From Vicinamibacterales bacterium (GTDB lineage: Bacteria; Acidobacteriota; Vicinamibacteria; Vicinamibacterales; UBA8438): a DNA stretch of 64,000 nucleotides. The DNA lies in NCBI GenBank assembly GCA_965222265.1, contig CBDCTP010000003.1, positions 2,246,280-2,310,279 on the forward strand, in the 5' to 3' direction. Shown piece after piece: positions 17,649 to 61,332 of this stretch; the stretch's first letter is position 1; every line of letters begins with the position of its first letter. The position numbers and the translations under genes were made by a program. The notes below the pieces were generated by a model, which saw nothing but the letters and a program-made list of their open reading frames with translations, did no database searches and was not told the DNA's origin.

Positions 17649-17734
17649 CCCGCCTCGGCGGGAGCGGCGCGGGGCGCAGGGGTCCCCGCAAGCGGACGCC
17701 GGGGGTTCGGGGCGCAGCCCCGTCTGATTGAAGC
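17649..17734 (+). repeat. structured intergenic repeat, copy A1 (5'-divergent/truncated)
   Basis: cgcctcggcgggagcggcgcggggcgcaggggtccccgcaagcggacgccgggggttcggggcgcagccccgtctgattgaagc. It is identical to A2 over this span. Confidence 0.95.
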
Positions 17735-17844
17735 GCAGACTCCCCAAGGCGCGCACAGCGCGCCTCGGCGGGAGCGGCGCGGGGCGCAGGGGTCCCCGCA
17801 AGCGGACGCCGGGGGTTCGGGGCGCAGCCCCGTCTGATTGAAGC
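17735..17844 (+). repeat. structured intergenic repeat, copy A2 (full core)
   Basis: gcagactccccaaggcgcgcacagcgcgcctcggcggg...ccccgtctgattgaagc, lying 110 bp in register after A1. Confidence 0.95.
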
Positions 17845-17858
17845 TACGATCGCTTCCC

Positions 17859-18854
17859 ATGTGGCTCTTCTGGGCGCCGGGGGTGCTCGCGCTGGCGGCG
17901 GCGGTGTTCCTGCTGGCGCGCCGGCTGCACGCTGCCCGCGATCACGAGGCGCGCCTCCGGGCGCGCCTCGCGGCCGTGCTCGCCGCCCGCGCGGCCGGGC
18001 TCGCGGTCTGGAGCCCGGACGGCCGGCTGGTGGCGTGCAATCCGCGCTTCCGCGAGTTCTATCCGGACGTGCCGATCCGGCCGGGCCTGGAGCTCGAGGA
18101 TCTCGTGCGCTTCACCGTCACCCGCGGGCTGGTCCAGGTGCCGGAGGCGGAGGTCGAGGCCTGGGTGCAGGCGCGGCTGGCGGGCGCCCGCGCCGCGGCG
18201 TGCGACGTGGTGCGCACCGCCGACGGCCGCTGGCTCGAGATGCGGGTCGGTCCGTCGGACGGCGGCGAGACGCTGCTGCTGTACACCGACGTCACCGCCG
18301 CGCACGAGGCCGCCGCGGCGCTGGCCGAGCGCGACGCGCAGCTCGACGGCCGGGCGGCGGATCTCGAGCTGCTGCAGGCCGCGCTGGCGGCCGCGGGCGA
18401 GGCCGGCTCGTTCGAGGCGGCCGCGCGGCGGATCAACGAGCAGGTCTGCCGCTGGGCCGGCTGGCCGGTCGGCCACGCCTGGCGCGCGGCGGACGGCGGC
18501 GCCGCGCTGGCGCCGTGCCCCGCGGCGCTCGTGATCGACGGCGACGGCTTCGAGCCGCTGCGGGCGGCGCTGGCGACCGAGCGGCCGGCGCGGGGCGAGG
18601 GCCTCGCCGGGCGCGTGCTGCAGGCGGGGCGCGTCGTCTGGGTCGCCAACACCGAGAGCGATCCGACGTTCCCGGCCGCGCGCCGGGCGAGCATGCCCGG
18701 CATTCGCGGCGCGTGCGGGGTGCCGGTCAAGCGGGGGGAGCAGGTGGTCGCCGTGCTCGAGTTCCTCGCGCGCGAGCAGCTCGCGCCGGTGGAGGCGACG
18801 ACGCGCCTCCTCGAGAGCGTGGGCCGGGCGCTGGGGTCCGTTGACTATTACTAG
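17859..18854 (+). CDS. membrane-anchored PAS-GAF sensor protein without a recognisable output domain
   Basis: One N-terminal TM segment. PAS-like WSPDGRLVACNPRFREFY...LLLYTDVT. C-terminal GAF-like GLAGRVLQAGRVVWVANTESDP...ACGVPVKRGEQVVAVLEF. The ATG at 17859 is preferred to the TTG at 17838, which lies inside the repeat. Confidence 0.7.
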   Translation: MWLFWAPGVLALAAAVFLLARRLHAARDHEARLRARLAAVLAARAAGLAVWSPDGRLVACNPRFREFYPDVPIRPGLELEDLVRFTVTRGLVQVPEAEVEAWVQARLAGARAAACDVVRTADGRWLEMRVGPSDGGETLLLYTDVTAAHEAAAALAERDAQLDGRAADLELLQAALAAAGEAGSFEAAARRINEQVCRWAGWPVGHAWRAADGGAALAPCPAALVIDGDGFEPLRAALATERPARGEGLAGRVLQAGRVVWVANTESDPTFPAARRASMPGIRGACGVPVKRGEQVVAVLEFLAREQLAPVEATTRLLESVGRALGSVDYY

Positions 18855-19219
18855 TCCCCGGACCCGCGGACAGCGTCTGCGTGCCGCCGGATGATGTCGC
18901 ACACATCCTTCACGATGTTCCCCGAGCTGCGGACGTTGTCCCGGTCGCCCACCAGGTGCCCGCTGCTGTCCCAGACCAGGGCGTAGTGCCGCTCTTCGAA
19001 CTCGAACCACACGGTGTAGTCCGCCAGCTCCTCGCGCGCCACCGGAACCACCGTCTCGCACTCGCTGCGGCTCCCCAGGTTCATGATGTACTCGTAGCGC
19101 GTCGGGCCGTCATCTCCCAGCGCGAAGTCTGCAATCGGGGCCACGAACAGCGTCTGCGCGGACAGGTGGGGCACGAACGCCGCAACGAACACCGCGGTCA
19201 ACATCATCTTCTTCGTCAT
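18851..19219 (-). CDS. small secreted hypothetical protein
   Basis: GGGAGG lies 5 nt upstream of the ATG. Signal peptide MTKKMMLTAVFVAAFVPHLSA. G+C is lower than in the neighbouring genes. Confidence 0.5.
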   Translation of the reverse strand: MTKKMMLTAVFVAAFVPHLSAQTLFVAPIADFALGDDGPTRYEYIMNLGSRSECETVVPVAREELADYTVWFEFEERHYALVWDSSGHLVGDRDNVRSSGNIVKDVCDIIRRHADAVRGSGD

Positions 19220-22835: not shown

Positions 22836-24310
22836 CGCGCGGCCGCGAAGCCCTCGACCGGCTGCCGCTCCCCGAGATGAACCCGCGCGGGTTGATGCGC
22901 CACTTCGGGCCCGGCCTGATCCTGATGATGACCGGCGTCGGCACCAGCCACATGGTGACCGCCCCGGTGGCCGGCGGGCGGTTCGAGTACGCCCTGCTCT
23001 GGTGCATTCCGGTCGCGTACATCTTCAAGTACTACGGCTTCGAGATGGCGTTCCGGTTCACCAACGCCACCGGCCGCAGCATGCTCGACGCGTACACCAC
23101 GGCGCCCGGCAAGTGGCCGGTCTGGTACGTGCTGATCACCACCGTCGTCCAGTGCGCCCTGGGGCAGGCCGGGCGGCTGGCGGCGGCGGCGGCCGTGCTC
23201 TACTTCGTCGTCTCGCAGTACCTGGGCCTGGGCCTTCCGGCCTGGGTGTACGGACTGGGGCTCGGCCTGCTCTCGGTCAGCATCATCCTGTACGGACGCT
23301 ACGCGGCGGTGGAGCTGGCCACCAAGGTGCTGGCCGGCATGCTGTTCGTCTCGACGGTCGGCGTGTACCTGTTCCAGCCGGCCCCGCTGTCGGCGATGGG
23401 CCACTTCTTCACCGTCGAGACGCCGATCGGTTCCTGGCTGACCATCGCGGCCTTCCTCGGCCTGTTGCCGACCGGCATCGACGTGTCGCTGCAGGCCTCG
23501 GAGTGGGGCAAGGCGAAGCGGGTGGGGATGGGGCGCATCCGCGAGCAGATGGAGGCGGACGGGTTGGCCCGGCGCTTCGACGCGTTCGGACCGCGGCTGG
23601 AGGACCTGACGGTGGACGTCTCGAAGCTGCCGGCGCACGCGCAGGAGTACTGCCGGCGCTGGTTCCGCATCGGGATCTGGGACTTCTCGCTGGGCCACGT
23701 GGTGTCGTTCATCCTGGCCTCGATCTTCCTGCTGCTGGCCGCCGTCTGGCTCTATCCGAGCGAGGTGGCCGGCAACGCGGTGATCGGCGAGATCGCCCGC
23801 ATCTTCACGGACAGCATCGGCCCCGGGATGATGCTGGTCTTCCTGCTGGGCGCCTTCGCGGCCACCTTCTCGACCGCGTTCAACTACTTCGACGGCTGGC
23901 CCCGCGTGGTCGCGGCCTGCTGCCGCAACCTGTTCCGGAGCACGGCGGCGTTGCCGGGCATTGCCGCCGACGAGCTGACCGACGGCAAACGCGGGACGCC
24001 GGTCTCCGAGTACAACATCTACCGCATCACGATGCTCTACTCGCTCGTGGCTTCCGTCCTCATCATGGTGGGGTTGCCGCGCCCGGTGTTCCTCGTGCTG
24101 GTCTCGTCGGCGCTCGCGCTGTTCATCGCGCCGGTCATATACTTCCTGAACCTGTACTACTGCGTGACGGTGATTCCGAAGACCGACACGGTGTTCTATC
24201 CGTCGCTGGCCGTCCGCGCCTTCGCGTGGTTCAGCCTGGCCGTCTTCACCGCCCTGACCGCGATCGTCATCCTGGCACGCGTGTTCAACGTCACGTTGTT
24301 CGGAGCATGA
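22832..24310 (+). CDS. NRAMP-family divalent metal cation transporter
   Basis: The ATG overlaps the Cld-like stop (ATGA). FGPGLILMMTGVGTSHMVTAPVAGGRFEYALLW is followed by about 11 TM segments. Confidence 0.82.
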   Translation: MTRGREALDRLPLPEMNPRGLMRHFGPGLILMMTGVGTSHMVTAPVAGGRFEYALLWCIPVAYIFKYYGFEMAFRFTNATGRSMLDAYTTAPGKWPVWYVLITTVVQCALGQAGRLAAAAAVLYFVVSQYLGLGLPAWVYGLGLGLLSVSIILYGRYAAVELATKVLAGMLFVSTVGVYLFQPAPLSAMGHFFTVETPIGSWLTIAAFLGLLPTGIDVSLQASEWGKAKRVGMGRIREQMEADGLARRFDAFGPRLEDLTVDVSKLPAHAQEYCRRWFRIGIWDFSLGHVVSFILASIFLLLAAVWLYPSEVAGNAVIGEIARIFTDSIGPGMMLVFLLGAFAATFSTAFNYFDGWPRVVAACCRNLFRSTAALPGIAADELTDGKRGTPVSEYNIYRITMLYSLVASVLIMVGLPRPVFLVLVSSALALFIAPVIYFLNLYYCVTVIPKTDTVFYPSLAVRAFAWFSLAVFTALTAIVILARVFNVTLFGA

Positions 24311-24323
24311 CGAGGTCGGCCGC

Positions 24324-25328
24324 TTGAAGGTCTGCGTCGTCGGAGCGGGCGCCATCGGCGGCTACATGGCCGTGCGCCTCGCGCACGCGGGGCACGAGGT
24401 GGCGGTCGTCGCGCGCGGGGCCCACCTGGCGGCGATTCGCGAGCGGGGGCTGACGCTGGTCGAGGCCGACGAGGAGCTGACGGCGGCGCCCGCGGCGGCG
24501 ACCGACCGGATCGGCGACCTCGGCCCCCAGGACCTCGTGCTGCTCGCGCTCAAGGCCCACCAGATCGTGGCGGTCGTCGACGAGCTGCCGGCCCTGCTCG
24601 GTCCCGGGACGGTCCTCGTGACCCTGCAGAACGGCGTCCCCTGGTGGTACTTCCAGAAGCTGGACGGCGAGTTCGCGGGCCGCGTGGTGACCGCGGTCGA
24701 CCCGCGCGGCGTCCTGTTCGACCGCATCGATCCGGACCGCCTGATCGGCTGCATCGCCTATCCGGCGGCCGTCGTCGCCCGGCCGGGCGTCATCCGCCAC
24801 ATCGAGGGCAACCGGTTTCCGGTCGGCGAGCTCGACGGGCGCGAGACCGAGCGCGTGCGGCGGGTCTCGGCGGTGTTCACGGAGGCCGGCTTCAAGGCGC
24901 GCATCCTCGACGACATCCGGTCGGAGATCTGGCTGAAGCTGTGGGGCAACCTGACGTTCAACCCGATCAGCGCGCTGACGCACGCCACGCTGGTCGATAT
25001 CTGCCGCTTCCCGCTGTCGCGGGAGTTGGCGGCGGCGATGATGACCGAGGCGCAGGCGGTGGGCGAGCGCCTGGGCGCCGGGTTCCGGGTGCCGCTGGAG
25101 CGGCGCATCGACGGGGCGGAGGCGGTCGGGCGGCACAAGACGTCGATGCTGCAGGACGTGGAGGCGGGCAAGCCGCTCGAGATCGACGGCATGCTGGGTG
25201 CGGTCGTCGAGCTCGCCGAGCTCACCGGCATCGCGGTGCCGACCCTGCGGGCGCTCTACGCGTGCGTGAGCCTCCTGGACCGGACGATCCGCGACGAGGG
25301 GATGCGGATAGCCGGTGCTCCCCGCTAG
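24324..25328 (+). CDS. panE: 2-dehydropantoate 2-reductase (ketopantoate reductase family)
   Basis: MKVCVVGAGAIGGYMAVRLAHAGHEV Rossmann N-terminus, KLWGNLTFNPISALT, and TSMLQDVEAGKPLEID. Confidence 0.85.
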   Translation: MKVCVVGAGAIGGYMAVRLAHAGHEVAVVARGAHLAAIRERGLTLVEADEELTAAPAAATDRIGDLGPQDLVLLALKAHQIVAVVDELPALLGPGTVLVTLQNGVPWWYFQKLDGEFAGRVVTAVDPRGVLFDRIDPDRLIGCIAYPAAVVARPGVIRHIEGNRFPVGELDGRETERVRRVSAVFTEAGFKARILDDIRSEIWLKLWGNLTFNPISALTHATLVDICRFPLSRELAAAMMTEAQAVGERLGAGFRVPLERRIDGAEAVGRHKTSMLQDVEAGKPLEIDGMLGAVVELAELTGIAVPTLRALYACVSLLDRTIRDEGMRIAGAPR

Positions 25329-25329
25329 C

Positions 25330-25425
25330 ACGGCGCGCACGGCGCGCCTCGGCGGGAGCGGCGCGGGGCTGTGGGGTCCCCGCAAGCGGACGCCGGGGGT
25401 TCGGGGCGCAGCCCCGTCTGACTGA
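25330..25425 (+). repeat. structured intergenic repeat, copy B
   Basis: cacggcgcgcacggcgcgcctcggcgggagcggcgcggggctgtggggtccccgcaagcggacgccgggggttcggggcgcagccccgtctgactga. Flanked by CGCTAGC at 25323-25329 and 25426-25432. Confidence 0.95.
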
Positions 25426-25442
25426 CGCTAGCGGAGAGGTAG

Positions 25443-26687
25443 ATGAAGGCGCTCGAGGGAGTTCGGGTTCTCGACATGACGCACGTGCAGTCCGGTCCGA
25501 GCTGCACGCAGTTGCTGGCCTGGTTCGGGGCCGATGTCATCAAGGTGGAGCGGCCGGGCACCGGCGACGCCACGCGCCACCAGCTGCGCGACGTTCCCGA
25601 CGTCGACAGCCTCTACTTCACGATGCTCAACCACAACAAGCGCAGCCTCACGCTCGATACCAAGCGCGAGCGGGGCAAGGCGCTGTTCGCGCGGCTGCTC
25701 GAGATTTCCGACGTGCTGACGGAGAACTTCGCGCCCGGCGCGCTCGACCGGATGGGCTTCTCCTGGGAGCGCATCCAGGCGATCAACCCGCGCCTCATCT
25801 ACGCCTCCGTCAAGGGGTTCGGGCGGGGGCCGTACGAGCGCTACAAGGTCTACGAGAACATCGCGCAGTGCGCGGGCGGGGGCGCCAGCACGACCGGCTT
25901 CGACGACGGGCCCCCGACGGTGAGCGGCGCCCAGATCGGCGACTCCGGCACGGGGCTGCACCTGGCGCTCGGCATCGTGACGGCGCTCTTCCAGCGCGAG
26001 CGGACCGGCCGCGGCCAGCGCATCGTGTGCGCGATGCAGGACGCGGTGCTGAACCTGTGCCGTGTCAAGCTGCGCGACCAGCAGCGTCTGGCGCACGGGC
26101 CGCTGACGGAGTACCCGCAGTACCCCTACGGGACGTTCGGCGACGCCGCCCCGCGGGCCGGCAACGCGTCCGGGGGAGGGCAGCCCGGCTCGGTGCTCAA
26201 GTGCAAGGGCTGGGAGGACGACCCCGACGCGTACGTCTACGTCATCGCGCAGGCGTCGGCGTTCGACGGGCTGGCGCGCGTGGTCGGGCGGGCGGACTGG
26301 CTGGAGGATCCGGAGTGGAACACGCCCGGAGCGCGGCTGGCCAAGCTCGACCAGGTCTTCGACGCCATCGAGCAGTGGACCCTGACGAAGACCAAGTTCG
26401 AGGTCATGGAGATTCTCACGCCGCTCAAGGTGCCGTGCGGGCCGGTGCTGTCGATGCGGGAGCTGGCCGAGGACCCGGCGCTGCGCGCCACGGCGACCAT
26501 CGTCGAGGTCGACCACCCGGCCCGCGGGCGGCACCTGTCCGTGGGGTGTCCCATCAAGCTGTCGGATTCGCCGGTGGAGGTCACGCGCTCGCCGCTGCTC
26601 GGCGAGCATACGGAGGAGATCCTGACGGGTCTGCTCGGCCTGGACGAGGCGGCCCTGGCCGCCACCAAGGCCGACGGCGCGGTATAG
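25443..26687 (+). CDS. frc: formyl-CoA:oxalate CoA-transferase
   Basis: Collinear with Oxalobacter Frc over the whole length: [123 protein letters not shown]. Confidence 0.9.
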
Positions 26688-26709
26688 GAGGCGGTACAGG
26701 AGCTGGACC

Positions 26710-27594
26710 ATGAAACACGCCAACGCTCTCGCGCGGGTCCCCGTCACGCTGGCGCTGGCGGCCGGCGCCGTCGTTCCGGCCGCGTCGTCCTCGGGCCTGG
26801 AGGTGTCGCATCGCGCGCGCGCCCTGCACCCCGGCGAGGTGGTCGTGATCGAGGTGCGGCCGTCGCTGACGCCGCTGTCGGTGGAGGCCACCGCCTTCGG
26901 CCACGAGGTGCGCTTCTTCGAGGGGGAGTCGGACGGGGTCTGGCGCGGCCTCGTCGGCATCGACCTGACGGTGGAGCCGGGCGCCTACGACGTCGCGGTG
27001 CGGGCCGCGATCGGCACCGGTGCGGCGGTGCACGCCACCTACACGCTCGAGGTCGAGCCCAAGGAGTTTCCGACGCGCCACCTGCGCGTCAATCCGAGCT
27101 TCGTGGACCCGCCGCAGGAGGTGATCGACCGCATCCTGCGCGAGGCGGACGAGGTGGCGGCGATCTTCCGCGGCGCCAGCCCCGAGCGGCTGTGGCAGGG
27201 CGGGTTCGCGGCGCCCGTGCCGGGCCGGCCGACCAGCAGCTTCGGCCGCCGCAGCGTCTACAACGGCCAGCCGCGGAGCCCGCACAGCGGGACCGATTTC
27301 CGGGCCGGCACGGGCGTGCCGATCAAGGCGCCGAACGCGGCGACCGTCGTCCTGACGGGCGATCTCTACTTCTCCGGCCAGGTGGTGATCCTCGACCACG
27401 GCTGGGGGCTGTACTCGTACTTCGCCCACCTCTCGGCGGTCGACGTCGCCGCGGGCGACGTGGTGACCCGCGGCCAGGTCGTCGGGCGGGTCGGCGCGAC
27501 GGGGCGCGTCACCGGGGCGCACCTGCACTGGACCGTACGCCTGAACGACGCCCGCGTCGACCCGCTGTCGCTGATGGAGCTGCTCGCAGACTGA
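26710..27594 (+). CDS. M23 family metallopeptidase
   Basis: HSGTDFRAGTGVPIKAPNAATVV, ILDHGWGLYSYFAHLS, GRVGATGRVTGAHLHWTVRLN. Confidence 0.88.
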   Translation: MKHANALARVPVTLALAAGAVVPAASSSGLEVSHRARALHPGEVVVIEVRPSLTPLSVEATAFGHEVRFFEGESDGVWRGLVGIDLTVEPGAYDVAVRAAIGTGAAVHATYTLEVEPKEFPTRHLRVNPSFVDPPQEVIDRILREADEVAAIFRGASPERLWQGGFAAPVPGRPTSSFGRRSVYNGQPRSPHSGTDFRAGTGVPIKAPNAATVVLTGDLYFSGQVVILDHGWGLYSYFAHLSAVDVAAGDVVTRGQVVGRVGATGRVTGAHLHWTVRLNDARVDPLSLMELLAD

Positions 27595-27697
27595 CCTCGC
27601 GCGCGCACGTCCAGCGCTGACGGCACCCCGGCAGGTCGAGCCGCCTACCTGAGCGGCGGGCTTGCGACAGACGTCAGGAAGGGCACCACCGCAGGCG

Positions 27698-28909
27698 TTA
27701 GCTCGGGTCGCCCACCGGCGGCAGAAAGCTCAGCATCCGCTCGCTCCGCGGCCGGTACGTACCCCCGCTCAACTCGATGAGACCCTCCTGCAGAAGCCAG
27801 TTGATGTCGCGCGTGAGCGTCTTGTCGGTCTTGCCTGCGTAGAGGGCGGCCACCGTTGGATTGAGACCACGGAGATCCGCTCTTGGGGGCGGCACCTGCT
27901 GATTGCTCAGCGCCAAGACCAGTTCGAGACGGCGGTGGAGCGCCGGCGACCGCCGCTTCGCCCGGAAAATGCCGAAAACGAAATGCTGCCACGCGATGGA
28001 CAATTGGATGACGTTGACGTATTCACACTGCTCCACTAGGCCATCGACGAAGCCTTGCAACGCATACAGAACGAATTCGATGGGGTCACCCTGACCGCTG
28101 TTCGCTCGGCTCGCCCGATCGAGCTGCCGGTAGTAGTCGGTACGCGTTCGATTGTAGTGATTACTCAGCACGTGTGCCGACGTCAGCGGAACCCCGGCAT
28201 TGGCCAACAGCATGAGTTCGACCAGACGCGCCGTACGGCCGTTGCCGTCGCCGAAGGGGTGAATCCATGCGATGTACAGGTGAGCGACGATCGCCTTGAA
28301 GATGGCCACCGCCACCCGGTTCTCACGCGGTTGGCCGAACACCGGCGGCAGCTGTTCTCCGTTCAGCCACTCGCAGAGCCGATCCAAGAGAAACGCACAG
28401 TCCGCACGAGGAGCCCCCCGATAGTGACCGACGCCCACGACGCTTGTTGGAATCTCGCCGGGAACGACCCCGTCTTCCAGGTGTTCATCGAGACCTTGCA
28501 GCACTCGTCGATTGCAGTCCGCAATCCATTCCGGAGTCAGCTGGATCTGGCCCCCGCTGACAATGGTGGCCTCGATGTCGTTGCAGGCTTGCACGACGTT
28601 GTCTACCTCCTGACCCAGGTATTCCTGCGATGGTGGCAGTCGACGCCGGCCTTCGAGACGGTCACGGATTTGCTCCTCGCTGAGCGTGTTGCCCTCGATC
28701 GCCGTTGTCGCCTGCGCCCCCTTGATCAGGTATAGGCTCTGCATCGTCTGCGCGTTGCCGGGCGGTAGTGCGGCGGCGGCGATCTGTCCGCAGCGGGCCA
28801 CCGCTTGGCCAAGCAACACCCAGAGACGGTGTCCTGCGGGACGGAGATCCAGCTCGAACGTGATCCACGGGTGGCTGCGCTCGTAGGCGCGGACGTTCAT
28901 TGAGGCCAT
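27698..28909 (-). CDS. Fic family protein (class II), C-terminal wHTH-like region
   Basis: Fic core HPFGDGNGRTARLVELM. An upstream TTAIEGN fits the inhibitory motif. The alternative ATG at 28900 has a better-spaced AAGGA. Confidence 0.85.
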   Translation of the reverse strand: MASMNVRAYERSHPWITFELDLRPAGHRLWVLLGQAVARCGQIAAAALPPGNAQTMQSLYLIKGAQATTAIEGNTLSEEQIRDRLEGRRRLPPSQEYLGQEVDNVVQACNDIEATIVSGGQIQLTPEWIADCNRRVLQGLDEHLEDGVVPGEIPTSVVGVGHYRGAPRADCAFLLDRLCEWLNGEQLPPVFGQPRENRVAVAIFKAIVAHLYIAWIHPFGDGNGRTARLVELMLLANAGVPLTSAHVLSNHYNRTRTDYYRQLDRASRANSGQGDPIEFVLYALQGFVDGLVEQCEYVNVIQLSIAWQHFVFGIFRAKRRSPALHRRLELVLALSNQQVPPPRADLRGLNPTVAALYAGKTDKTLTRDINWLLQEGLIELSGGTYRPRSERMLSFLPPVGDPS

Positions 28910-29248
28910 CCTTGGTGCTCCAAGTTCAGAATATCGGCACCGCCTGTTGATTATAGTGCGTAAATTGTCCCATAGAGTGTCTCGTAGGATGTCCCATGTC
29001 GTCAGGGGGCACCGCGCCGAGACGGCTTGGCTCGACGGCAAGGCTGAAAGAACGTCGGGCTGATGTAGGGATACTCGAGTGCGTGCCTGCACCTGGTGCG
29101 TAGGGATTGCGAAGCGGATCCACGAGGGGCAGCTTGCGTCAACGATGCCCGTGAAATCATGCTCGACGTCCGGCGTCTCTCATCACGACGTCTCGTATCG
29201 CAGAACAGCGTTGCGCCCGCCGGGTCGGTTAGACTGGGCTCCGGCTTG

Positions 29249-30046
29249 GTGACGGAACGTTCCACCCTGGCGCTGCCATCGGCGCTCGACCCCGGCCAGG
29301 CGGGCCGCTGGCGGCGCGTCCGCGGCGGCGGCGGCGTCGTCTGTCTGGACTACGACGGCACGCTGACGCCGATCGTCGCGCGTCCCGAGCTGGCGGCGCT
29401 GCCCGCGGCGATGCGCGCGACGCTGCGGCGGCTGGCGGCGGCGCTGCCCGTGGCCATCGTGTCCGGGCGGGACGTCGCGGTCGTGGCCGGGTTCGTCCGG
29501 CTCGACGGCCTGGCCTACGTGGGCAGCCACGGGCTCGACATCGTCGGGTTCCCCGGCAGCGGCCTCCGCAGGGAGCTGGCGCTCGACTTCGTGCCGGAGC
29601 TCGACCGCGCGGAGCGCCGGCTGCGGGCGGAGACGGCGCCGGTCGCCGGCGCCATCGTGGAGCGCAAGCGGTTCAGCGTCTCGACGCACGTCCGCCTCGT
29701 CGCGCCGGCGGAGCGCGCGCGCGTCGACGCGCTCGTGGGCCGCGTGCAGCAGGCGCATCCGTCGCTCCGCCGGGAGGGCGGCAAGCTCGTGCACGAGCTG
29801 CGGCCGGACATCGAGTGGGACAAGGGGCGGGCGGTGTGCTGGCTGGTCGAGGCCCTCGGGCGCGATCTCTCGTCCGCCCTCTTCATCGGCGACGATCTCA
29901 CTGACGAGACGGTCTTCCGCGTCCTGGCCGGGCGGGGCGCCGGCGTCGTCGTCGCCGAGACCGACCGCCCGACCGCCGCGGAGCTGCGCCTCGGCCACCC
30001 GGGCGAGGTGCGCACGCTGCTGGAGCGGCTGGCCGGGAGCGGCTGA
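29249..30046 (+). CDS. otsB: trehalose-phosphatase
   Basis: HAD motif I VCLDYDGTLTP, VAIVSGRD, ELRPDIEWDKGRAV, FIGDDLTDE. Start uncertain (GTG 29249, TTG 29246 or ATG 29159). Confidence 0.8.
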   Translation: MTERSTLALPSALDPGQAGRWRRVRGGGGVVCLDYDGTLTPIVARPELAALPAAMRATLRRLAAALPVAIVSGRDVAVVAGFVRLDGLAYVGSHGLDIVGFPGSGLRRELALDFVPELDRAERRLRAETAPVAGAIVERKRFSVSTHVRLVAPAERARVDALVGRVQQAHPSLRREGGKLVHELRPDIEWDKGRAVCWLVEALGRDLSSALFIGDDLTDETVFRVLAGRGAGVVVAETDRPTAAELRLGHPGEVRTLLERLAGSG

Positions 30047-30052
30047 TGTAGC

Positions 30053-30448
30053 CTAGTCTCCCAGCCGGGCGCCCCGGACGTGCTTGTGGCACTGGACGCA
30101 GTTGAGCGTCATCTCCATGTAGGCCAGCGACACGCCGTCGATGTTGCGTGCCGCCGCCGCCTCCATCAGCGCGTGGGCGGATCCCCGGAAGTCGGCCGCG
30201 TAGCGCAGGTACTGGGCCGTCTGGAGCGGGCTCCAGGTCGACACCTCGCTCAGGGCCACCAGCTCGTTGGCGATGCGCTCCACCCGGCCGTGATCGCCGA
30301 GCACCACCGCCGCCAGCAGCTCCTGGGCGTGGTCGAGCTTGTCGCGCATCAGTTGGCTCAGGCTGGGCACCTGCGCCGAACCGGTTGTCGTCAGCGCCAG
30401 GATCAGCAGGAGGGCCGCCGTCAGGGTGGCTCGTGTCCGTTGCCTCAT
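30053..30448 (-). CDS. cytochrome c'-like (class II) c-type cytochrome
   Basis: Signal peptide, helical body, and a single C-terminal heme motif CVQCHKH. AAGGA upstream of the ATG. Confidence 0.62.
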   Translation of the reverse strand: MRQRTRATLTAALLLILALTTTGSAQVPSLSQLMRDKLDHAQELLAAVVLGDHGRVERIANELVALSEVSTWSPLQTAQYLRYAADFRGSAHALMEAAAARNIDGVSLAYMEMTLNCVQCHKHVRGARLGD

Positions 30449-30546
30449 GATCCGTCCTTTCGCATGCATGTACGCATGATCGCATCCACGCTTGATCCGC
30501 CACAAGCTTCTGGCGGATCATTTTGCGTCACGGGAAGGAGAACGCG

Positions 30547-31026: not shown

Positions 31027-31030
31027 GCCA

Positions 31031-32189: not shown

Positions 32190-32191
32190 CG

Positions 32192-32623: not shown

Positions 32624-32655
32624 CGGATGCACCTCCACCTGTTGTCGCGTCCGAA

Positions 32656-33492: not shown

Positions 33493-33574
33493 CGCTCGGG
33501 CACCCCCTGGATGGATTCTGAGCGTGCCGCCCGGCACTGTCAAGCAGCAGGCCGCGCCGCGCGCCGGCCTGCCC

Positions 33575-34860: not shown

Positions 34861-34872
34861 TGCTTCACGGCT

Positions 34873-45072: not shown

Positions 45073-45079
45073 CCCGTTG

Positions 45080-47048: not shown

Positions 47049-48602
47049 TCACCCACCCGGCAGCACGCCGGCCGGTTCCCCGCGCTCGAGCTCGAAGCCG
47101 AAGTGCTGGATGCTCGCGAGCAGCGCCTCGGCGACGGCGTTCCGGAACGGCGCGCCGGCGAGCCGGAGCTCGTTGTCCGGATCGGCCAGCGATCCGAGCT
47201 CGACGAGCACGGCCGGCATGTTGGCGCCCACGAGCACGCGGAACGGCGCCTGCTGCACGGGACGCGGGCTCATGACGACCCGTTGGCGCAGCTCGGCGTC
47301 GACGATGCCGGCCAGCAGCGCCGACCGGTCCACGTACAGGATCTGCGCCATCTCCCACAGCACCGGGTCGATCCGGCGGCTGCCGCCGCCGACCACGGGG
47401 ATCGGCTGGACGTCGAGGTCCGCGAGCGCCCGCGCCTCGGCGTCGTACTCGTCGATGCCGAGGTAGAACACCTCCGCGCCGGTGGCCGCCGGGCGGGTCG
47501 ATGCGTTCGCGTGCAGGCTGATGAACAGATCGGCGCCGTTGTTGTTCGCGATGGCGGCGCGCGCATCGAGGCCGACGGTCTCGTCGCGCTCGCGGGTGAG
47601 GATGACCCGCAGCCCGAGCCGGCTCTCGATCACGGCCCGCAGCCGCTGCGCCACGCCGAGCGTGATGTCCTTCTCCAGGGCGCCGTCGGGGCCCTGGCTG
47701 CCGGCGTCGTCGCCGCCGTGCCCGGGATCGATGGCGACGACGCGCGGGGCCGACCCGGCGGCGAAGTCGGGCAGCGGATCGACCGGCGCCGGCCCCGGCC
47801 GGGCGGCCGGGGCGGGGGCGGGTCCGGCATCCGCGGCGGCGCGGGCCGCCCGCAGCTCGATGCGGAGCGTGTCGCCGCCGCCCGGCCCCGGGTCGGTCGA
47901 GACGCTGTACGAATCGACGGCGGGGCCCAGATCGACCGCCAGGCTCGGGGCGTTCGCGACCCGGCCGAACCCGGTCGCCAGGGCGCCGTCGAGCCGCGGC
48001 CGGCGCACCAGGTCGATGTCGTCGGCCGCGAACGTCACGACCAGACGGCCGGCGCGCTCCTCGATGGTGTGCGGGGTGCTCGGCGTCACGTCCAGGCGCA
48101 GTTGGTCGCTGCCGCCGCCGGGCCGGTAGCGGGCCGCGACCTGCGGCACCCGCAGGCCGCCGACGATGAGCAGCCTGGACTGCCGGCGGTACTCCAGCGG
48201 CTGGCCGTGGACCGGGGCCAGCGCGCGCGTGAGGAAGTCGGGCGGCACCAGCCAGCGGTCGCGGACGCGGCGGGGCGGCGCGCGCAGCGACACGAGGCGT
48301 CCCTCGACGGAGAGGATCTGCTGATCGGGCGTCAGGATGATGACCGCGGCGCCGGCCGTGACCGACAGCGTGCCCGCGCGCGAGTCCTCGTCGAGACCGA
48401 GCCCGAACAGCCGGGCGAGGTCGTCGAGGGCGACCATCTCGCGCCCGTCGTGGTCGACGGTGGCGATGCGCCCCCGCCCGCCCGGCGCGATGACGGTGAT
48501 GCCGTCGGCGGCCGGCTGGAGGGCCGCGGCGCCCGGGAGCGCCGCAACGGCCGCCGCGAGGGCTGCGCTGGATACGAGGAGTGCGGAGAGGGAGCGTGCC
48601 AT
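47049..48602 (-). CDS. amiC: N-acetylmuramoyl-L-alanine amidase (AMIN domains plus Amidase_3)
   Basis: [54 protein letters not shown]. Confidence 0.85.
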
Positions 48603-48637
48603 CCTGTCGCGCCGCGCGCGCGGCGCGCCTCACGACG

Positions 48638-49375
48638 ATGATAGCACCGCCGGACCGGGGCGCGCCCGGCCCGGGGGGGCTTGCGCCCGGCGCCGTCCTG
48701 GCGTACATCATCCCCGTGCCCGCGCTCGCCGAGACCGGCCTGGAGGGGTTGCTGCAGCCGCTGTGGGACTACCTGGCGCTGTCGGACGCCCCGCGCCCGG
48801 CGGACGTGATCTTCGTGTTCGGCTCGGCGGACCGCGCCGTGCCGGCGCGCGCCGCCGCGCTCTACGCCGCGGGATACGCTCCCCGCCTACTGGTGAGCGG
48901 GAGCTTCGGCCGGCTGACGCGGGGGCGCTTCGATCGTCCCGAGGCGCACGTGTTCCGGGACCTGCTGGTCGCCGCCGGCGTCCCGCCGCCGGCGGTCGTC
49001 ACCGAGCCGGTGGCGGCCAACACCCTCGAGAACGTGCGGTTCGGCGTGGCCGCGCTCGCCGCTTGCGGCCACCGCCCGCGGTCCGCGCTGCTGGTGGCGA
49101 AGGGCTTCGCGATGCGGCGCTGCGTGGCGACGTTCGCGCAGCAGTTCCCGGCGGTGCGGGTGCACGCGTGTCCGCCGGGGCAGCCGCTGCCGTCCGCGGT
49201 CGACCGGAGCCTGCCCGCGTTCGCGGCGCGCCTGGTGGCCGAGCTCGAGCGTCTCGAGCGCTACGCGGCGCAGGGCGACGTCCGGCCGCAGCCGCTGCCG
49301 TCCGCGGTCGAGACGGCCGCGCGCCGCGTCACGGCCGCGCTGGCGGCGATGCGGCGCGCGTCGAATGCGCGGTGA
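48638..49375 (+). CDS. YdcF/ElyC (DUF218) family protein
   Basis: [59 protein letters not shown]. Start uncertain. Confidence 0.68.
49180..49203 (+). repeat. 24-bp perfect direct repeat, copy 1 (inside the DUF218 gene)
   Basis: gcagccgctgccgtccgcggtcga, identical to 49288-49311. Confidence 0.95.
49288..49311 (+). repeat. 24-bp perfect direct repeat, copy 2 (108 bp downstream, in frame)
   Basis: gcagccgctgccgtccgcggtcga. Both copies encode QPLPSAV. Confidence 0.95.
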
Positions 49376-49437: not shown

Positions 49438-50160
49438 ATGCGTGCGATGCTTCTGAGTCTCGTTCTCGTCCTGGCGGCGGCGCCGGCCGCGCTCGCCGAC
49501 AGCAGCCCCGTCGACATCACCAGCGCCGACGGCACGGTGCTCAAGGGCAGCTACTACGATCCGGGGCAGCCCGGACCCGGCTTGCTGCTGGTGCACCAGT
49601 GCAACATGGACCGCACCTCGTGGGAGAGCCTCGCCGGCAGCCTCTCGGCGGCCGGCGTCCACGTGCTGACGTTCGATCTGCGCGGCTTCGGCGAGACGCC
49701 GGGCGAGGGGCTCGTCTCACCCGACTCGTTTCCGCGCCTGATGCAGCAGTCGCCGCCGGACGTCGACGCGGCCTACGCGTACCTGCTGGCGCAGGACGGC
49801 GTCGACGCGGCCCGCACCGGCGTGGGCGGCGCGAGCTGCGGCGTGGCGCTGACCTCGGACCTCGCGACGCGGAATCCCGACGTCCAGGCGTTCCTGGCGC
49901 TGTCCGGCTTCCCCAGCGAGGCGGCCCGGGAGCATATCGCCATGACGCCCGGGCTGGCGGTGTTCGGCGCGGCCGCCGATGCCGATGACCTGACGCCCGG
50001 CGTGCACGAGGTGATCAAGGCCGCGGTCGAGGGCTCGAAGAACGAGCAGTCGATGGCCAAGATCTACGGCGGGACCGAGCACGGGCTGCCGATGTTCGGG
50101 AAGAACCCCGATCTCGAGCCGGCCATCGTGTCCTGGCTCAAGGCGCAGCTGCTTCATTAG
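49438..50160 (+). CDS. secreted alpha/beta hydrolase (dienelactone-hydrolase-like)
   Basis: AGGAGG RBS, signal peptide, LLLVHQCN, nucleophile elbow GGASCG, and C-terminal GTEHG. Confidence 0.7.
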   Translation: MRAMLLSLVLVLAAAPAALADSSPVDITSADGTVLKGSYYDPGQPGPGLLLVHQCNMDRTSWESLAGSLSAAGVHVLTFDLRGFGETPGEGLVSPDSFPRLMQQSPPDVDAAYAYLLAQDGVDAARTGVGGASCGVALTSDLATRNPDVQAFLALSGFPSEAAREHIAMTPGLAVFGAAADADDLTPGVHEVIKAAVEGSKNEQSMAKIYGGTEHGLPMFGKNPDLEPAIVSWLKAQLLH

Positions 50161-50281
50161 ACGGGGCTGCGCCCCGAACCCCCGGCGTCCGCTTGCGGGG
50201 ACCCCTCTGCCCCGCGCCGCTCCCGCCGAGGCGCGCTGTGCGCGCCTTGCGGAGTCCGCGCGGGTCTACGGCGCGGGCTCC
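50152..50281 (-). repeat. structured intergenic repeat, copy G (full, with H0)
   Basis: gcttcattagacggggctgcgccccgaac...ccttgcggagtccgcgc-gggtctacg-gcgcgggctcc. It contains the stop codons of both convergent genes (TAG 50158-50160; CTA 50266-50268). Confidence 0.95.
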
Positions 50282-51669
50282 CGGCGGCGCGGCCTGACGA
50301 GGGCGGCGCCGCCGCAGGCGAGGGCGGCGCCGCCGAGGCCGCACATCGCCGGGGTCAGCCCGGCGATGCCGGCCCCGCCGGTCGCCACCTGGACGAGCGT
50401 CGCGAGCGCGATGCCGCCCGCCAGCGACGCCAGCGCCTCGGCCGCGGCCACGCGGCGCAGGTACAGCCCCGCCATGACCGGCACGAAGAGGCTGACGGTC
50501 AGCAGCGTGTAGAAGAAGCTCAGCACGCCGGCAATCGACTCCGCGGCGACCGCCAGCCCCGTGCCCAGCACGCCGCCGGCGACGGCGGCCAGCCGGGCCA
50601 CCCTGAGCACCTGGGCGTCGCTGGCCCCCGGCCGCACGAAGCGGCGGTAGAGATCCTGCGACAACGACGTCGCCAGCATGAAGAGAATGACGTCCGCGGA
50701 GCTCACCTCCGCCGAGAACAGCGCGGCCAGGCCCAGCGCGCCCACGAGCGGCGGGACGGCCTCCATCAGGAGCGTCGGCAGCGCCAGGTCCTGGTTGGCC
50801 AGCCCGGGATAGACCGACCGCGCGATCATCCCGAGCACGACCGGGGCGGCGGCGAACACCAGCAGCACGGCCGCCTGGATCCCGATGCCGGCGCGGACCG
50901 CCGCGTCGTCGCGAGCGGCGTAGACCTTCTGCAGCAGGCCCGGCGAGACGATGAACGCCGGTCCGAGCATGGCGAGGTAGAACCACCCCGAGCCGCCGCC
51001 GCGCCAGGGGTTCCAATAGCCCTCGATGTCGCGCGTCGTCTCCACGACGTGTCCCCAGCCGCCGACGTCCGCGAGCGCGAGCGGCAGGACGACGGCGAAG
51101 CCGACCAGCAGGATCGCGAGCTGCGCGACGTTGACCCAGACGGCGGTCAGCAGGCCGCCCGCGCTGAAGTAGACGGTGGCGACGAGGCCGCCCAGCACGC
51201 ACCCCACCCAGCGGTCGAGCCCGGTCACCACGTTGAGCACCCAGCCGATCGCCAGCAGTTGGCCCGCGAGAATGGCCAGCGTGCCGATCCACAGCAGCGC
51301 GGCGACCACCGCCCGGACGGCCCGACCGTAGCGCTGCTCCAGGAAGTCGCCCACGGTGTTGAGGTCGTGCTGCGCGGCGAGCCGGCGGACCCGGGGCCCG
51401 ATCCACAGCGCCAGGAAGATCGATCCGAGCCCGGCCGACCCGACCCACCACCACGCGCTGAGGCCGTCCCGATAGCCGAGCGCGGCGGCGTTCACGGTCG
51501 ATCCCGCGCCGATGTTCGAGGCCAGGATCGTGGCGAACAGGACGAACGGACCCAGCCGGCGTCCGGCGACGAAGAAGTCGCGCGCGAGCCGCACGCGCCG
51601 GCCGGCCCAGAGGCCGAAGCCCATCAGCAGGACCGCGTAGACCACGAGCACCGCGAGGTGGAGGTTCAT
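50266..51669 (-). CDS. sodium:solute symporter (SSS) family transporter
   Basis: DFFVAGRRLGPFVLFATILASNIGAGSTVNAAALGY followed by 13-14 TM segments. The ATG overlaps the upstream stop (ATGA). Confidence 0.85.
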   Translation of the reverse strand: MNLHLAVLVVYAVLLMGFGLWAGRRVRLARDFFVAGRRLGPFVLFATILASNIGAGSTVNAAALGYRDGLSAWWWVGSAGLGSIFLALWIGPRVRRLAAQHDLNTVGDFLEQRYGRAVRAVVAALLWIGTLAILAGQLLAIGWVLNVVTGLDRWVGCVLGGLVATVYFSAGGLLTAVWVNVAQLAILLVGFAVVLPLALADVGGWGHVVETTRDIEGYWNPWRGGGSGWFYLAMLGPAFIVSPGLLQKVYAARDDAAVRAGIGIQAAVLLVFAAAPVVLGMIARSVYPGLANQDLALPTLLMEAVPPLVGALGLAALFSAEVSSADVILFMLATSLSQDLYRRFVRPGASDAQVLRVARLAAVAGGVLGTGLAVAAESIAGVLSFFYTLLTVSLFVPVMAGLYLRRVAAAEALASLAGGIALATLVQVATGGAGIAGLTPAMCGLGGAALACGGAALVRPRRREPAP

Positions 51670-53920: not shown

Positions 53921-55273
53921 CTACTGCTCCCCGGCGGTGGACGCCGCCTGCTCGCGGCGGGCCTTGCGCGCCGCGAGCTCCTGCTCGTACTCCGCGTCGG
54001 TCAGGTCGTACCAGCCGATCCAGGCGAACGCCATCTCGTCGATCGTGCGCCCCCGCCCGTTCCCCACCCAGTTGCCGGGGTCGGGGTTCGACCGGTTGGC
54101 CTCCGAGTTGTCGTGCCAGCTGATGATGTGCAGGATGGTCCCGGCGGGCACGAGCGGCGCCACCTCGTCCGCGTAGTTGTAGACGAGGTGCCAGTTGTAG
54201 TCGAAGTGGGCGCAGCTGACGACCTCGGTCTGCATCGGCGTGCTCGCGGTGGGGTAGATCAGCTCCAGGCACTGGTACCTGCCGAGCGCGTGCATATGCG
54301 GCTGGAACGCGGTGATGCGGGCCGCCTTGTTCATGAGGGTGTAGCCGTCGCGCCGCACCACCTGGCCGGCCGGGATGTCGAGGTCGGTGACGTGCTGGCC
54401 GAGCTGCTTCGACCAGCGGATGTGCTTCGGCCGCACGCCCTCGGGGTGGAAGACGATGCCCAGCTCCATCACGGCGTCGATCGCCTCGCCGACCGCGTGC
54501 AGGTGGTAGTCCAGCTTCATCTTCCTGCCGGCCTGCAGCAGCACGCCGGAGTCGTCCGGATAGACCTCCGCGTTCTTGCCCGAGGCGTACTCCATCAGGA
54601 AGTGCCCGCTCACCGACGGCATCTGCGTGAACTCGTCGACGTCGACCGCGAACGACAGGGCGTGGTGGATGACCTGCCGCGAGCCGTCCCCGACCGGCCG
54701 GTGCTGGATGGCGCGGATGTAGCGGTCGCCCTCGAGCTCCAGCGGCGAGTACACCGAGCCGAACAGGTCGGGTCCCTCGGCCGGCACCGGCATCGCCGGG
54801 TAGCGCACGACGAGGTCGGGCTGGCCGATCTGCCACGCCGCCGCATCCGGGAACTCGCGCGCGGGCGGCATGTCGGCCGGGTCGCCCCGCGGCGCGCCGG
54901 CGTCGACCCAGCGGGTCACCAGGGCGATCTCCTCGTCGCTCAGCGACGGATCGTTCTTGAACCGCTGCAGGCCGATGTGCCGGTCGATGTGCCACGGCGG
55001 CATCTCGCGCGCCACCACGCGGCTGCGGATGGACCGCGCCCACGGGCGCACCTCCTCGTAGGTGACGAGCGACATCGGCGCCATCTCGCCCGGGCGGTGA
55101 CAGACCTGGCACGAGCGCTGCAGGATCGGGACGATGTCCCGGGCGAACGTCACCCCGCCGTCGCCGGCCGCGACGGGTTGCGCGCCCGCGCCCGCCGGCG
55201 CCAGCGCCGCGGCGGTGAGCAAAGCCGGCACGAGTCGGCCGGCGGGCCGTGTCGGTGTGGGGGTCTTGGTCAT
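53921..55273 (-). CDS. heme-c domain fused to a copper type II ascorbate-dependent monooxygenase (PHM/DBH)-like domain
   Basis: Signal peptide and CQVCH heme-binding motif. Candidate Cu ligands VIHHALSF, DYHLHAV, FQPHMHALG and TIDEMAF occur in the order expected for PHM-like CuH/CuM sites. Confidence 0.62.
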   Translation of the reverse strand: MTKTPTPTRPAGRLVPALLTAAALAPAGAGAQPVAAGDGGVTFARDIVPILQRSCQVCHRPGEMAPMSLVTYEEVRPWARSIRSRVVAREMPPWHIDRHIGLQRFKNDPSLSDEEIALVTRWVDAGAPRGDPADMPPAREFPDAAAWQIGQPDLVVRYPAMPVPAEGPDLFGSVYSPLELEGDRYIRAIQHRPVGDGSRQVIHHALSFAVDVDEFTQMPSVSGHFLMEYASGKNAEVYPDDSGVLLQAGRKMKLDYHLHAVGEAIDAVMELGIVFHPEGVRPKHIRWSKQLGQHVTDLDIPAGQVVRRDGYTLMNKAARITAFQPHMHALGRYQCLELIYPTASTPMQTEVVSCAHFDYNWHLVYNYADEVAPLVPAGTILHIISWHDNSEANRSNPDPGNWVGNGRGRTIDEMAFAWIGWYDLTDAEYEQELAARKARREQAASTAGEQ

Positions 55274-55353
55274 CGTCTCGCTCCTGCGCCCGGAACCGGA
55301 ATCCAGGCGGCAATGTACCACAGCCGCGAGCCCGCGCGCGACGGGCCGCGGCC

Positions 55354-61100: not shown

Positions 61101-61145
61101 AACCGCGCGTTCATCGTCAAGTTCACGCGGCTGTTCAGATTCTGA
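58128..61145 (+). CDS. DUF5916/CBM9-like large envelope protein with an extra N-terminal TolB_N/LpoB-like module and Pro/Ala-rich linker
   Basis: The N-terminal VAVVPFTNISGLPADDWIGAGFAETVAVDL...VVAGAFQRVGERVRITARL is followed by a PPAPAPPPG linker. Then come VWVFYDDENVYVGIRCWD, NGMAFMVNPIGG, WNPVWDVRTGRFEGGWSVEMQVPFKSLRF and a beta-rich C-terminus ending KFTRLFRF. Alternative ATG at 58179. Confidence 0.75.
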   Translation: MADKPRSRQAIDYANRVMSNTTINAHLGSSTTPAGARLGQRGRIGGRARPAAIEAPWSASAAAGVSVVAIVLVALSASLAAQASPAGARIVPQPGDRVAVVPFTNISGLPADDWIGAGFAETVAVDLERVANLATVDGGIADGLSAREVGLRLGTQWVVAGAFQRVGERVRITARLVHVATGAVSRTANVVGRLGELFALQDRIAAALAEDRPAAVAEQAVTPPAPAPPPGIALPEGARPASPAAAAAPGAAGFAPGIAAGVIDGPPAPVPPEVLNRDADGRATMRAFRLTRELDLDGSLREAVYDETGSASEFVQQFPIEGAPATERTEVWVFYDDENVYVGIRCWDSAPEDQWIADEMQRDSFQLIQNDRIVVAFDTFYDRRNGMAFMVNPIGGFFDFEISDESNPNSDWNPVWDVRTGRFEGGWSVEMQVPFKSLRFQQGRSQLWGIQFERQVRRKNEVSHLTPVPIAVGPGIMRLSVAATLVGLEVASENRRLEVKPYAIGSSATDLTASPPFSNRGAGDAGIDAKWGVTQNLTADFTYNTDFAQVEVDEQQVNLTRFSLFFPEKREFFLEARGIFDFGAGPNALGTGFGANNGGRQQGPPGTRAGSDVPLVFFSRRIGLQAGRTVPIVGGGRLTGKVGNFSIGALNMQTDDAPDANALATNFTVVRVKQDILRRSRIGAIFTRRSVSLDRNGDNAVYGADASFAFYDNVTFNGYYARTRTYGREGDDASYQGQFTYDADLFGLQVDHLQVGKNFNPEVGFLRRLDFRRSFVAAHYRPRPAIEAIRQFTFGGSLDYIENGARDLETRGVRARFVTEFENSDRITADLLRSYELLVEPFQIARDVAIPIGGYEFQDVFLSYYMGQQRRVSGTAFVQQGTFFGGDITAFGYRQGRIGLTRQMSLEPTVQINRINLPQGRFTATVVSSRATYTFTSRMFLSALVQYNSAVDQMGTNVRFRWEYSPGSELFVVYNDQRDTTLRPGRLPMLENRAFIVKFTRLFRF

Positions 61146-61148
61146 CGG

Positions 61149-61224
61149 GCTTCAATCAGACGGGGCTGTGCCCCGAACCCGCGGCGTCCGCTTGCGGGGA
61201 CCCCTGCGCCCCGCGCCGCTCCCG
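61149..61224 (-). repeat. structured intergenic repeat, copy H1 (truncated)
   Basis: gcttcaatcagacggggctgtgccccgaacccgcggcgtccgcttgcggggacccctgcgccccgcgccgctccc. It starts 3 nt after the stop at 61143-61145. Confidence 0.93.
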
Positions 61225-61332
61225 GCTTCAGTCAGACGGGGCTGGCGCCCCGCACCCCCGGCGTCCGCTTGCGGGGACCCCCTTGCCCCGCGCCGCTCCC
61301 GCCGAGGCGCGCCGTGCGCGCCTTGCGGAGTC
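61225..61332 (-). repeat. structured intergenic repeat, copy H2 (full core)
   Basis: gcttcagtcagacggggctggcgccccgcaccc...gaggcgcgccgtgcgcgccttgcggagtc, lying 76 bp in register after H1. Confidence 0.93.

Follow-up and report, generated by a model that had tools for sequence, protein, structure and literature searches.

A previously uncatalogued family of mosaic hairpin repeats between the genes of Vicinamibacterales

A repeat family of a familiar type

We analyzed a 64,000-nt stretch of a Vicinamibacterales genome (Acidobacteriota; GenBank assembly GCA_965222265.1, contig CBDCTP010000003.1, positions 2,246,280 to 2,310,279, forward strand), hereafter the window, in which a G+C-rich element recurs between genes. 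The element represents a previously uncatalogued family of a familiar type, not a new kind of system. It is probably a mosaic, non-coding, non-autonomous intergenic repeat that resembles the repetitive extragenic palindromic (REP), bacterial interspersed mosaic element (BIME) and BOX repeats and becomes, on transcription, part of mRNA 3′ ends or of intercistronic RNA. Each element is a mosaic of an optional 5′ hairpin, a hairpin named B and a 76-nt unit named C. Comparison between species shows gain, loss and re-orientation of copies as well as their amplification into head-to-tail arrays.

To locate copies, a profile built from seven window copies as seed was used in an nhmmer search of the window, and a covariance model (R1) derived from 87 copies was run over it with filters off. 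Both methods agreed on ten significant matches (model E = 4e-17 to 5e-5; next-best model match E = 0.07), with boundaries that coincided within a few bases except for the copies at 25319/25327-25430 and at 45021, the latter extended by the model to 45127. Repeat detection joined the positions given in a first-pass annotation of the window by three direct-repeat families (D1, D2 and D4) and 24 long inverted pairs (I1-I24). A further mini copy, 41686-41747, was detected only through module patterns and an empty orthologous site because it lacks B and the first hairpin of C. The census thus reproduced the one claimed in that annotation, with 11 copies (ten modeled and one mini) on both strands, distributed over nine intergenic loci from 17.6 to 61.4 kb, and no significant match by nhmmer or covariance model at positions 1-17641. 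Copies measure 76-135 nt and share ~85% identity per alignment column (87 B+C copies from nine genomes). Genes in the window, which has ~73% G+C, were defined with a third-position GC map. By this map all copies are intergenic, as claimed, with the refinement that an element reaches into the final codons of two genes. These are the neighbors of the copy at 50150-50282, both of which take their last codons and stop from the element: its tail supplies the TAG stop at 50158-50160 and the GTAG in the loop of its 5′ hairpin the stop at 50266-50268.

The family extends far beyond the window. An exact 23-mer from C occurred in at least 97 eight-kb blocks, including long-read chromosomes, and was confined, among the matches listed, to eight species-level metagenome-assembled genomes (MAGs) of Vicinamibacterales/Vicinamibacteraceae. 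The window and six of these genomes have shared genes that are ~89-96% identical, while OZ244900 and OZ244229 reach only ~72-80%. The window and 97 blocks picked by this 23-mer formed an 858-kb sample (loci numbered L below), in which nhmmer found 181 copies in 129 arrays. The family consensus was the same in every genome and, drawn from all 181 copies, agreed with that of the first-pass annotation, and copies were spread round a 5.85-Mb chromosome. Judged from these matches, the family appears specific to a clade of Vicinamibacterales that includes several uncultured soil Acidobacteria. The additional arrays present in the ascertained blocks point to a density of roughly one per 35-45 kb, compared to one per 7 kb in the window, and these densities make the hundreds of copies per genome extrapolated earlier plausible.

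This distribution leaves next to no room for the copies being an artefact of local duplication, misassembly or chance similarity in G+C-rich DNA. The only support for such an origin comes from the high G+C content, at which hairpins and short matches are frequent, and from a folding z-score of only about -2.4. Against it stands the recurrence of the same 76-135-nt sequence in eight genomes that were assembled independently, long-read chromosomes among them, where it occupies at least 97 blocks, with model E values down to 4e-17; a purely local duplication, one of the outcomes that the first-pass annotation named as refuting it, is thereby rejected. In seven sampled loci (L004, L027, L029, L045, L073, L077 and L080), short-read MAG contigs start or end inside a copy (pattern match within ~100 nt of the end), which suggests that the repeat is a likely cause of contig breaks in MAGs.

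Modular anatomy and predicted fold

The core of the element spans ~103 nt and comprises CGCAAG, the perfect 7-bp hairpin B, two further hairpins named C1 and C2 and the tail TCTGATTGAAGC. Unit C reads GGGAGCGGCGCGGGGC-NNN-GGGGTCCCCGCAAGCGGACGCCGGGGGTTCGGGGCGCAGCCCCGTCTGATTGAAGC. Within it, C1 is a long imperfect hairpin with an outer CGGCG/CGCCG stem, internal GGA/GGA loops that are symmetric and an apical loop that holds the variable NNN, while C2 is a short hairpin, CGGGGC-GCA-GCCCCG, followed by the single-stranded tail. RNAalifold and single-sequence folding concur on B, C1 and C2; the positions that vary lie in the tail and in predicted loops. A 5′ hairpin often precedes the core in one of three recurring forms: the commonest, A1, is GGAGTCTGCGCC-GTAGAAC-GGTGCAGACTCC; the second, found within arrays, is the linker GCCGGC-GCA-GCCGGC; and the third is GGGACCACG...CGTGGTCCC. 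We also considered a universal 5′ target hairpin and rejected it, since, by eye, an upstream hairpin is missing from roughly half of the B-C copies that lack A1.

A1 is an independent repeat that occurs alone and also fused to another module, E. This A1-E composite, in which A1 is joined to TGGTGAGGGTTGGTTGGGCGGCAACCGGAGCCGCAGGCGACGATTGCCGG, was found in five sampled loci (L073 2460-2559, L007 ~4962, L024 ~2342, L030 ~1336 and L062 ~2383) and is absent from the window. The mosaic build, with A1 common to a second composite, adds to the earlier description of the element. Architectures include A-B-C, A-B-C-C(-C) and (linker-B-C)n, with arrays of C-C-C at a period of ~76 nt or of (linker-B-C)n at ~115 nt (measured periods 76, 95-96, 115-116 and 121 nt). 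All 35 multi-copy arrays are strictly head to tail, none having mixed orientation.

In the predicted stems, 99.2% of cells across 87 copies are paired, compared to 41-55% when partners were slid. Compensatory changes were present in three pairs (11 cells), a level reached by 0-2 of 500 shuffles, and the linker hairpin also varies in a compensatory manner (GCCGGC/GCCGGC, GTCGGC/GCCGAC and AGAGGC/GCCTCT). With stems that hardly vary, there is little covariation. The fold is strand-asymmetric: G.U pairs form on the forward strand only, as at pair 71-80 (GT in 105 copies, GC in 43), and the forward RNA is more stable than the reverse in all 87 copies (-56.4 versus -51.7 kcal/mol, mean gain 4.7).

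Several other identities were assessed. Protein coding was rejected on the basis of the intergenic location by third-position GC, array periods of 76, 95-96, 115-116 and 121 nt, 1-nt indels between copies and the lack of a conserved reading frame, and CRISPR on the basis of units that abut head to tail without unique spacers, with a period equal to the unit length (76, 95 or 115 nt) and dispersed copies kilobases apart. Both results match the first-pass annotation, which had also failed to recognize a named family. Indeed, an Rfam scan of the whole window at gathering thresholds gave no matches, a permissive scan (E ≤ 10) of one full-length copy (30900-31300) gave nothing relevant and a full-text literature search with element sub-sequences found no paper and nothing relevant on repetitive DNA in Vicinamibacter. 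Rfam likewise found nothing for a hammerhead or other ribozyme, considered because of CUGAUUGA in the tail. No tRNA or transfer-messenger RNA was called at the copies, and a phage origin was rejected, with zero exact matches among viral contigs.

Orientation and gene context

Arrays are oriented with respect to transcription. Between co-directional genes, 31 arrays are sense and 8 antisense (P = 3e-4). Among 77 clearly classified arrays, 27 have convergent and 11 have divergent neighbors. Gene ends face the 5′ side in 63 of 84 cases and the 3′ side in 45 of 94 (P = 2e-4); on median, an array lies 10 nt from its upstream stop codon. A replication-strand cause of the bias was not supported, as orientation showed no link to replichores defined by GC skew on two long replicons (17:10, P = 0.25); the bias is therefore tied to transcription rather than replication.

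These asymmetries bear on a distinctly improbable alternative, in which the element acts at the DNA level as a protein-binding or chromosome-organizing site, with palindrome B bound by a dimeric protein. BIMEs bind gyrase, IHF or DNA polymerase I, and B is an almost invariant, perfect 7+7 palindrome; copies occur all round the 5.85-Mb chromosome, and arrays exist. A DNA site, however, predicts neither an orientation relative to transcription nor strand-specific G.T pairs, both of which were observed, and the C-only, half and mini copies lack B altogether.

Two features of the neighborhood were noted in addition. Near-consensus sigma-70-like promoters lie beside two copies, at 17601-17629 (minus strand, TTGACA-17-TAGCTT, by eye) and 33543-33515 (minus strand, TTGACA-17-CAGAAT), so the elements can adjoin promoters as well as gene ends. 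Moreover, the repeat often stands directly at the 3′ end, in either orientation, of genes for paralogous secreted proteins of ~330-340 amino acids with a conserved YACHEGNY motif near the C terminus. Three such genes reside in the window (31161-32189, 32656-33684 and 61971-62948, all minus strand) and others in L008, L010, L016, L018, L026, L033, L039, L041, L048 and further loci. The protein family has no Pfam match; of the 97 loci, which were selected only for repeat content, at least 17 contain it.

Turnover at orthologous sites

Comparison of orthologous sites revealed gain and loss of copies. At the site of the mini copy, L079 has no element: CGGTTCGGGTAG, the last 12 nt of pstB, occurs once in L079 and flanks a 62-nt insert in the window. 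The half copy at 45021-45076 is replaced by ~12 nt in L079. Conversely, at two sites where short spacers of unrelated sequence stand in the window (55266-55329 and near 52976), L053 harbors full elements, and L073 carries an element beside the ortholog of window positions 30046-30053, a gap of 6 nt in the window. Orientation, composition and copy number differ as well. Upstream of pstC, the window has one unit (38961-39088, plus strand) and L079 has four units on the opposite strand; the 31031 site holds A-B-C in the window and A1-E in L073; and orthologous arrays differ in copy number (L028/L052, L036/L043 and L011/L024). These presence/absence and copy-number differences support the role as a non-autonomous mobile or dynamic element that the first-pass annotation had listed among its options. 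As a separate observation, an unrelated 110-nt insertion is present in two genomes (L001 7088-7199 and L040 3905-4013) and absent at the same site in a third (L019 ~6395).

Four orthologous single copies are 0.83-0.96 identical, compared to 0.83-0.92 at codon position 3 and 0.94-0.98 at positions 1+2 of the flanks. Orthologous copies thus drift approximately like third codon positions, which indicates little constraint on individual copies. The combination of weak per-copy constraint and a fixed consensus is as predicted by ongoing production of copies from conserved sources.

Among duplicated flanks, only the 12-bp duplication at the mini copy is backed by an empty site; a 10-bp case in L072 and a 7-bp case at 25327-25430, where CGCTAGC stands on either side, are within the shuffled null. 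Alignments of filled with empty sites (L011/L024, L086/L030 and the half-copy site) are too diverged to fix the exact ends. Taken at face value, the variable lengths (12, 10 and 7 bp) would be accounted for by copying of a structured RNA through retrotransposition or template switching, akin to a bacterial short interspersed element, as would 5′ truncation and sense bias; the half copy and C-only units are 5′-truncated with the 3′ tail kept, and the element has no terminal inverted repeats. We nonetheless regard this origin as very improbable: reverse transcriptases were not seen, the 3′ end carries neither an A- nor a U-tract, just one of the duplications is confirmed by an empty site and the truncation is equally explained by deletion or tandem duplication of C.

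A probable role at mRNA 3′ ends

How the elements might arise and persist can be outlined from these patterns. New copies would continually be made from conserved source copies by a sequence-specific trans-acting machinery, arrays would expand and contract by slippage or unequal recombination, and copies would come and go over the time that species take to diverge. They would survive mainly just past stop codons in sense orientation and thus, once transcribed, form part of the upstream mRNA's 3′ end or of intercistronic RNA, where the forward strand is predicted to fold into three or four very stable G+C hairpins. REP and BIME elements in Escherichia coli block 3′-to-5′ exonucleases and/or attenuate read-through. 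By analogy with REP, BIME and BOX repeats, the hairpins of the present family would most likely do the same (PMC3733652, PMC3049150). The sense bias and forward-strand folding are consistent with the role at mRNA 3′ ends considered in the first-pass annotation. Its suggestion of a terminator is not supported in the canonical intrinsic form: no U-tract follows the hairpins, the tail being UCUGAUUGAAGC, and none of the five copies in 24000-43000 was called as a terminator.

A number of points count against this interpretation. A general target duplication went undetected in most copies, the longest flank matches equaling the shuffled null in two tests, and the visible duplications, being of unequal length, do not fit a classical cut-and-paste enzyme. 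The element has no terminal inverted repeats on reading of the consensus. Its left end is (CCA)GGAGTCTGC... or CGCAAGGCGC... and its right end ...GTCTGATTGAAGC, with only a direct GTCTG in common and no inverted match. No transposase or RAYT-like gene was found in the 858 kb by tblastn with two approximate probes, a weak test that gave nothing at E < 0.6. The compensatory changes are few, and a single variant source copy may have passed on many of them, as for the 105-119 TA variant, which is mostly from one genome. The orientation count includes orthologous sites in more than one genome, although subtracting about ten from the majority still leaves ~21:8. Finally, a role at 3′ ends cannot apply to the 11 of 77 arrays that lie between divergent genes. 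In addition, we inspected the genes located between inverted copies. These are ordinary metabolic genes; the one in L011 resembles, by eye, a sugar-nucleotide dehydratase or epimerase and not a transposase.

Much of the same evidence could be read differently. A credible, if rather unlikely, possibility is that the element works chiefly as a cis-acting RNA under host selection, for instance as a non-canonical terminator, an attenuator or a stabilizer of mRNA, possibly with its own RNA-binding protein. Selection on its function would then hold the sequence constant, and copies would have spread by recombination or gene conversion instead of transposition. The sense bias, placement right after stops, enrichment between convergent genes (27 of 77), forward-strand G.U pairs with their stability advantage in 87 of 87 copies and the conservation of the unpaired GCAAG and the GGA/GGA internal loop, equal to that of the stems, all agree with it. 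Selection on the host's behalf is difficult to reconcile with orthologous copies that drift about as fast as third codon positions, with presence/absence or flips at the same site in ~92% identical species and no sign that neighboring genes need the copies, with 8 antisense copies and 11 between divergent genes and with the persistence of truncated half and mini copies; the missing U-tract also argues against it.

We retain the mosaic, non-autonomous repeat transcribed at mRNA 3′ ends as the favored reading. The B-C unit might be copied by a mechanism new to bacterial small repeats, which would involve directional placement after stops or beside hairpins, variable-length duplications, exclusively head-to-tail arrays and a dedicated trans-acting protein that reads conserved unpaired motifs of the folded forward strand as RNA or single-stranded DNA; we consider this improbable. 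If the mobilizing enzyme were neither a RAYT nor an insertion sequence (IS) transposase, the family would be considerably more interesting.

Copies in the window

Coordinates, modules and gene context of the window copies are given in Table 1. Two observations concern other parts of the window. ARAGORN called an 85-nt tRNA-Arg(TCG) at 48892-48976 (plus strand) inside a plus-strand open reading frame (ORF), 48581-49375, with a clear third-position GC signal; the Rfam scan of the window reported no tRNA, and the call is probably a false positive. Positions 2001-6000, which hold no copies, have a G+C content of 0.61-0.62 compared to 0.70-0.76 elsewhere in the window and may be acquired DNA.

Table 1 Repeat copies and flanking duplications in the window
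Feature	Coordinates	Strand	Modules and matches	Context
Copy 1a	17642-17734	+	C unit (C1, C2, tail) with B remnant at 5′ end; model 80.9 bits, E = 1.8e-11; nhmmer; modules	First unit of two-unit head-to-tail array between divergent genes
Copy 1b	17735-17846	+	A1 3′ arm only (17735-17743), B 17748-17764, C 17770-17844; model match 17743-17844, 112.8 bits	
B+C copy	25327-25430	+	Model match 25327-25428	Sense; between ketopantoate-reductase gene (stop 25326-25328) and CoA-transferase gene
Full-length A+B+C	31031-31163	+	A 31031-31060, B 31065-31081, C 31087-31160; model match 31060-31161, 115.9 bits; fold -80.1 kcal/mol, four hairpins	Occupies whole gap between convergent genes
A remnant + B + C with diverged tail	33575-33692	+	B 33596-33612; model match 33591-33692	Antisense to both minus-strand neighbors; ends at stop codon of gene 33688-34860
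Variant 5′ hairpin + B + C	38961-39088	+	B 38992-39008; model match 38987-39088	Between divergent LolA-like gene and pstC
Mini copy	41686-41747	+	A1 (41686-41716), GCAAGCG, C2 (41721-41735), tail TCTGAAGGAAGC	In pst operon between pstB and phoU, sense
Left 12-bp direct duplication CGGTTCGGGTAG	41675-41686	+		End of pstB including TAG stop
Right 12-bp direct duplication CGGTTCGGGTAG	41749-41760	+		
Half copy	45021-45076	-	3′ part of C1, C2, tail; nhmmer E = 9e-12 (45021-45078), model E = 5e-5	Fills gap between convergent phoR-like kinase gene and Ham1-family gene
Full-length A+B+C	50150-50282	-	Model match 50150-50251, 109.5 bits	Between convergent genes
Copy 9a	61149-61224	-	C-only; model 50.9 bits, E = 1e-6	Distal unit of two-unit head-to-tail array between convergent genes
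Copy 9b	61225-61355	-	A 61327-61355, B 61306-61322, then C; model match 61225-61327, 97.4 bits	

Significance and comparison with known repeat families

The family provides a ready marker for one clade of abundant, uncultured soil Acidobacteria. It also yields spurious ORF calls, and the covariance model R1 is useful for annotation and masking. As a long, strongly folded, strand-asymmetric and sense-biased repeat packed against stop codons, it lends itself well to the question whether elements of this sort are parasites, mRNA 3′-end devices or both.

Among characterized repeats, the mycobacterial MIRUs share a high-G+C host, tandem intergenic units of ~50-100 bp that also occur inside operons and a variable copy number. 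MIRUs have the same orientation as the flanking genes, and their neighbors' stop codons overlap the unit, as is likewise seen in the present family. They are described as carrying short reading frames that couple translation, not multi-hairpin structures; the unit lengths found here, in contrast, are not multiples of three, and there is no conserved reading frame. MITEs (miniature inverted-repeat transposable elements) such as Correia, Nezha and RUP are similar in being small, non-coding, dispersed and structured with insertion polymorphism, and one clean target duplication is present in our family. It differs from them in lacking a fixed-length target duplication and a known parent IS and in being G+C-rich instead of A+T-rich; no IS elements were seen in the sampled loci.

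REP families comprise extragenic G+C-rich hairpins in high copy number that are mostly located downstream of genes and vary between related genomes (PMC3733652). Their stems contain G.T pairs suggestive of an RNA-level role, and they cluster in mosaics with other short motifs (PMC3733652). The present family resembles the REPs and BIMEs of enterobacteria and pseudomonads, and the REPINs with their RAYT transposases, in being extragenic and mainly gene-downstream (63 of 84 5′ sides, 27 of 77 arrays convergent, median 10 nt). A1 alone, a 31-37-nt palindrome, is REP-like, but the whole element is not: its unit extends from 76 nt (C) to ~135 nt (A+B+C) with three to four distinct hairpins, as opposed to a single 20-40-nt palindrome. 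REP palindromes bear a conserved GTAG or CGTC at one end, outside the stem (PMC3733652). Here, GTAG lies in the A1 loop (GCC-GTAG-AAC), and C2 is followed by GTC but with the C and G of CGTC paired. REP dimers are mostly head to head or tail to tail and rarely head to tail, unlike the uniformly head-to-tail arrays found here (35 of 35). RAYTs are Y1 HUH transposases whose genes the repeats flank in the same genome, and none was seen in our sample by the weak probe search. The family is thus neither a textbook MITE, given the absence of inverted ends and of a fixed duplication, nor a textbook REP or REPIN, given its size, head-to-tail arrangement, loop-borne GTAG and lack of a visible RAYT.

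The BOX elements of Streptococcus pneumoniae and S. suis, organized as boxA-boxB(n)-boxC, are comparable in architecture only; the sequences are unrelated, and the host here has 73% G+C. In S. suis, elements flanked by boxA/C and by boxE/F have boxB in common (PMC3049150). Similarly, our family is composed of distinct modules, one of them tandemly repeated with variable copy number per locus, and one module serves different composites (A1 in A1-B-C and A1-E). Folded transcripts are predicted for both families, and both show enrichment at the 3′ ends of genes. The repeated module is 3′ terminal here and internal in BOX, and BOX ends resemble IS inverted repeats, which have no counterpart in our element. 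With this family, the REP/BIME/BOX type of mosaic hairpin repeat is extended to the Acidobacteriota, an under-studied phylum.

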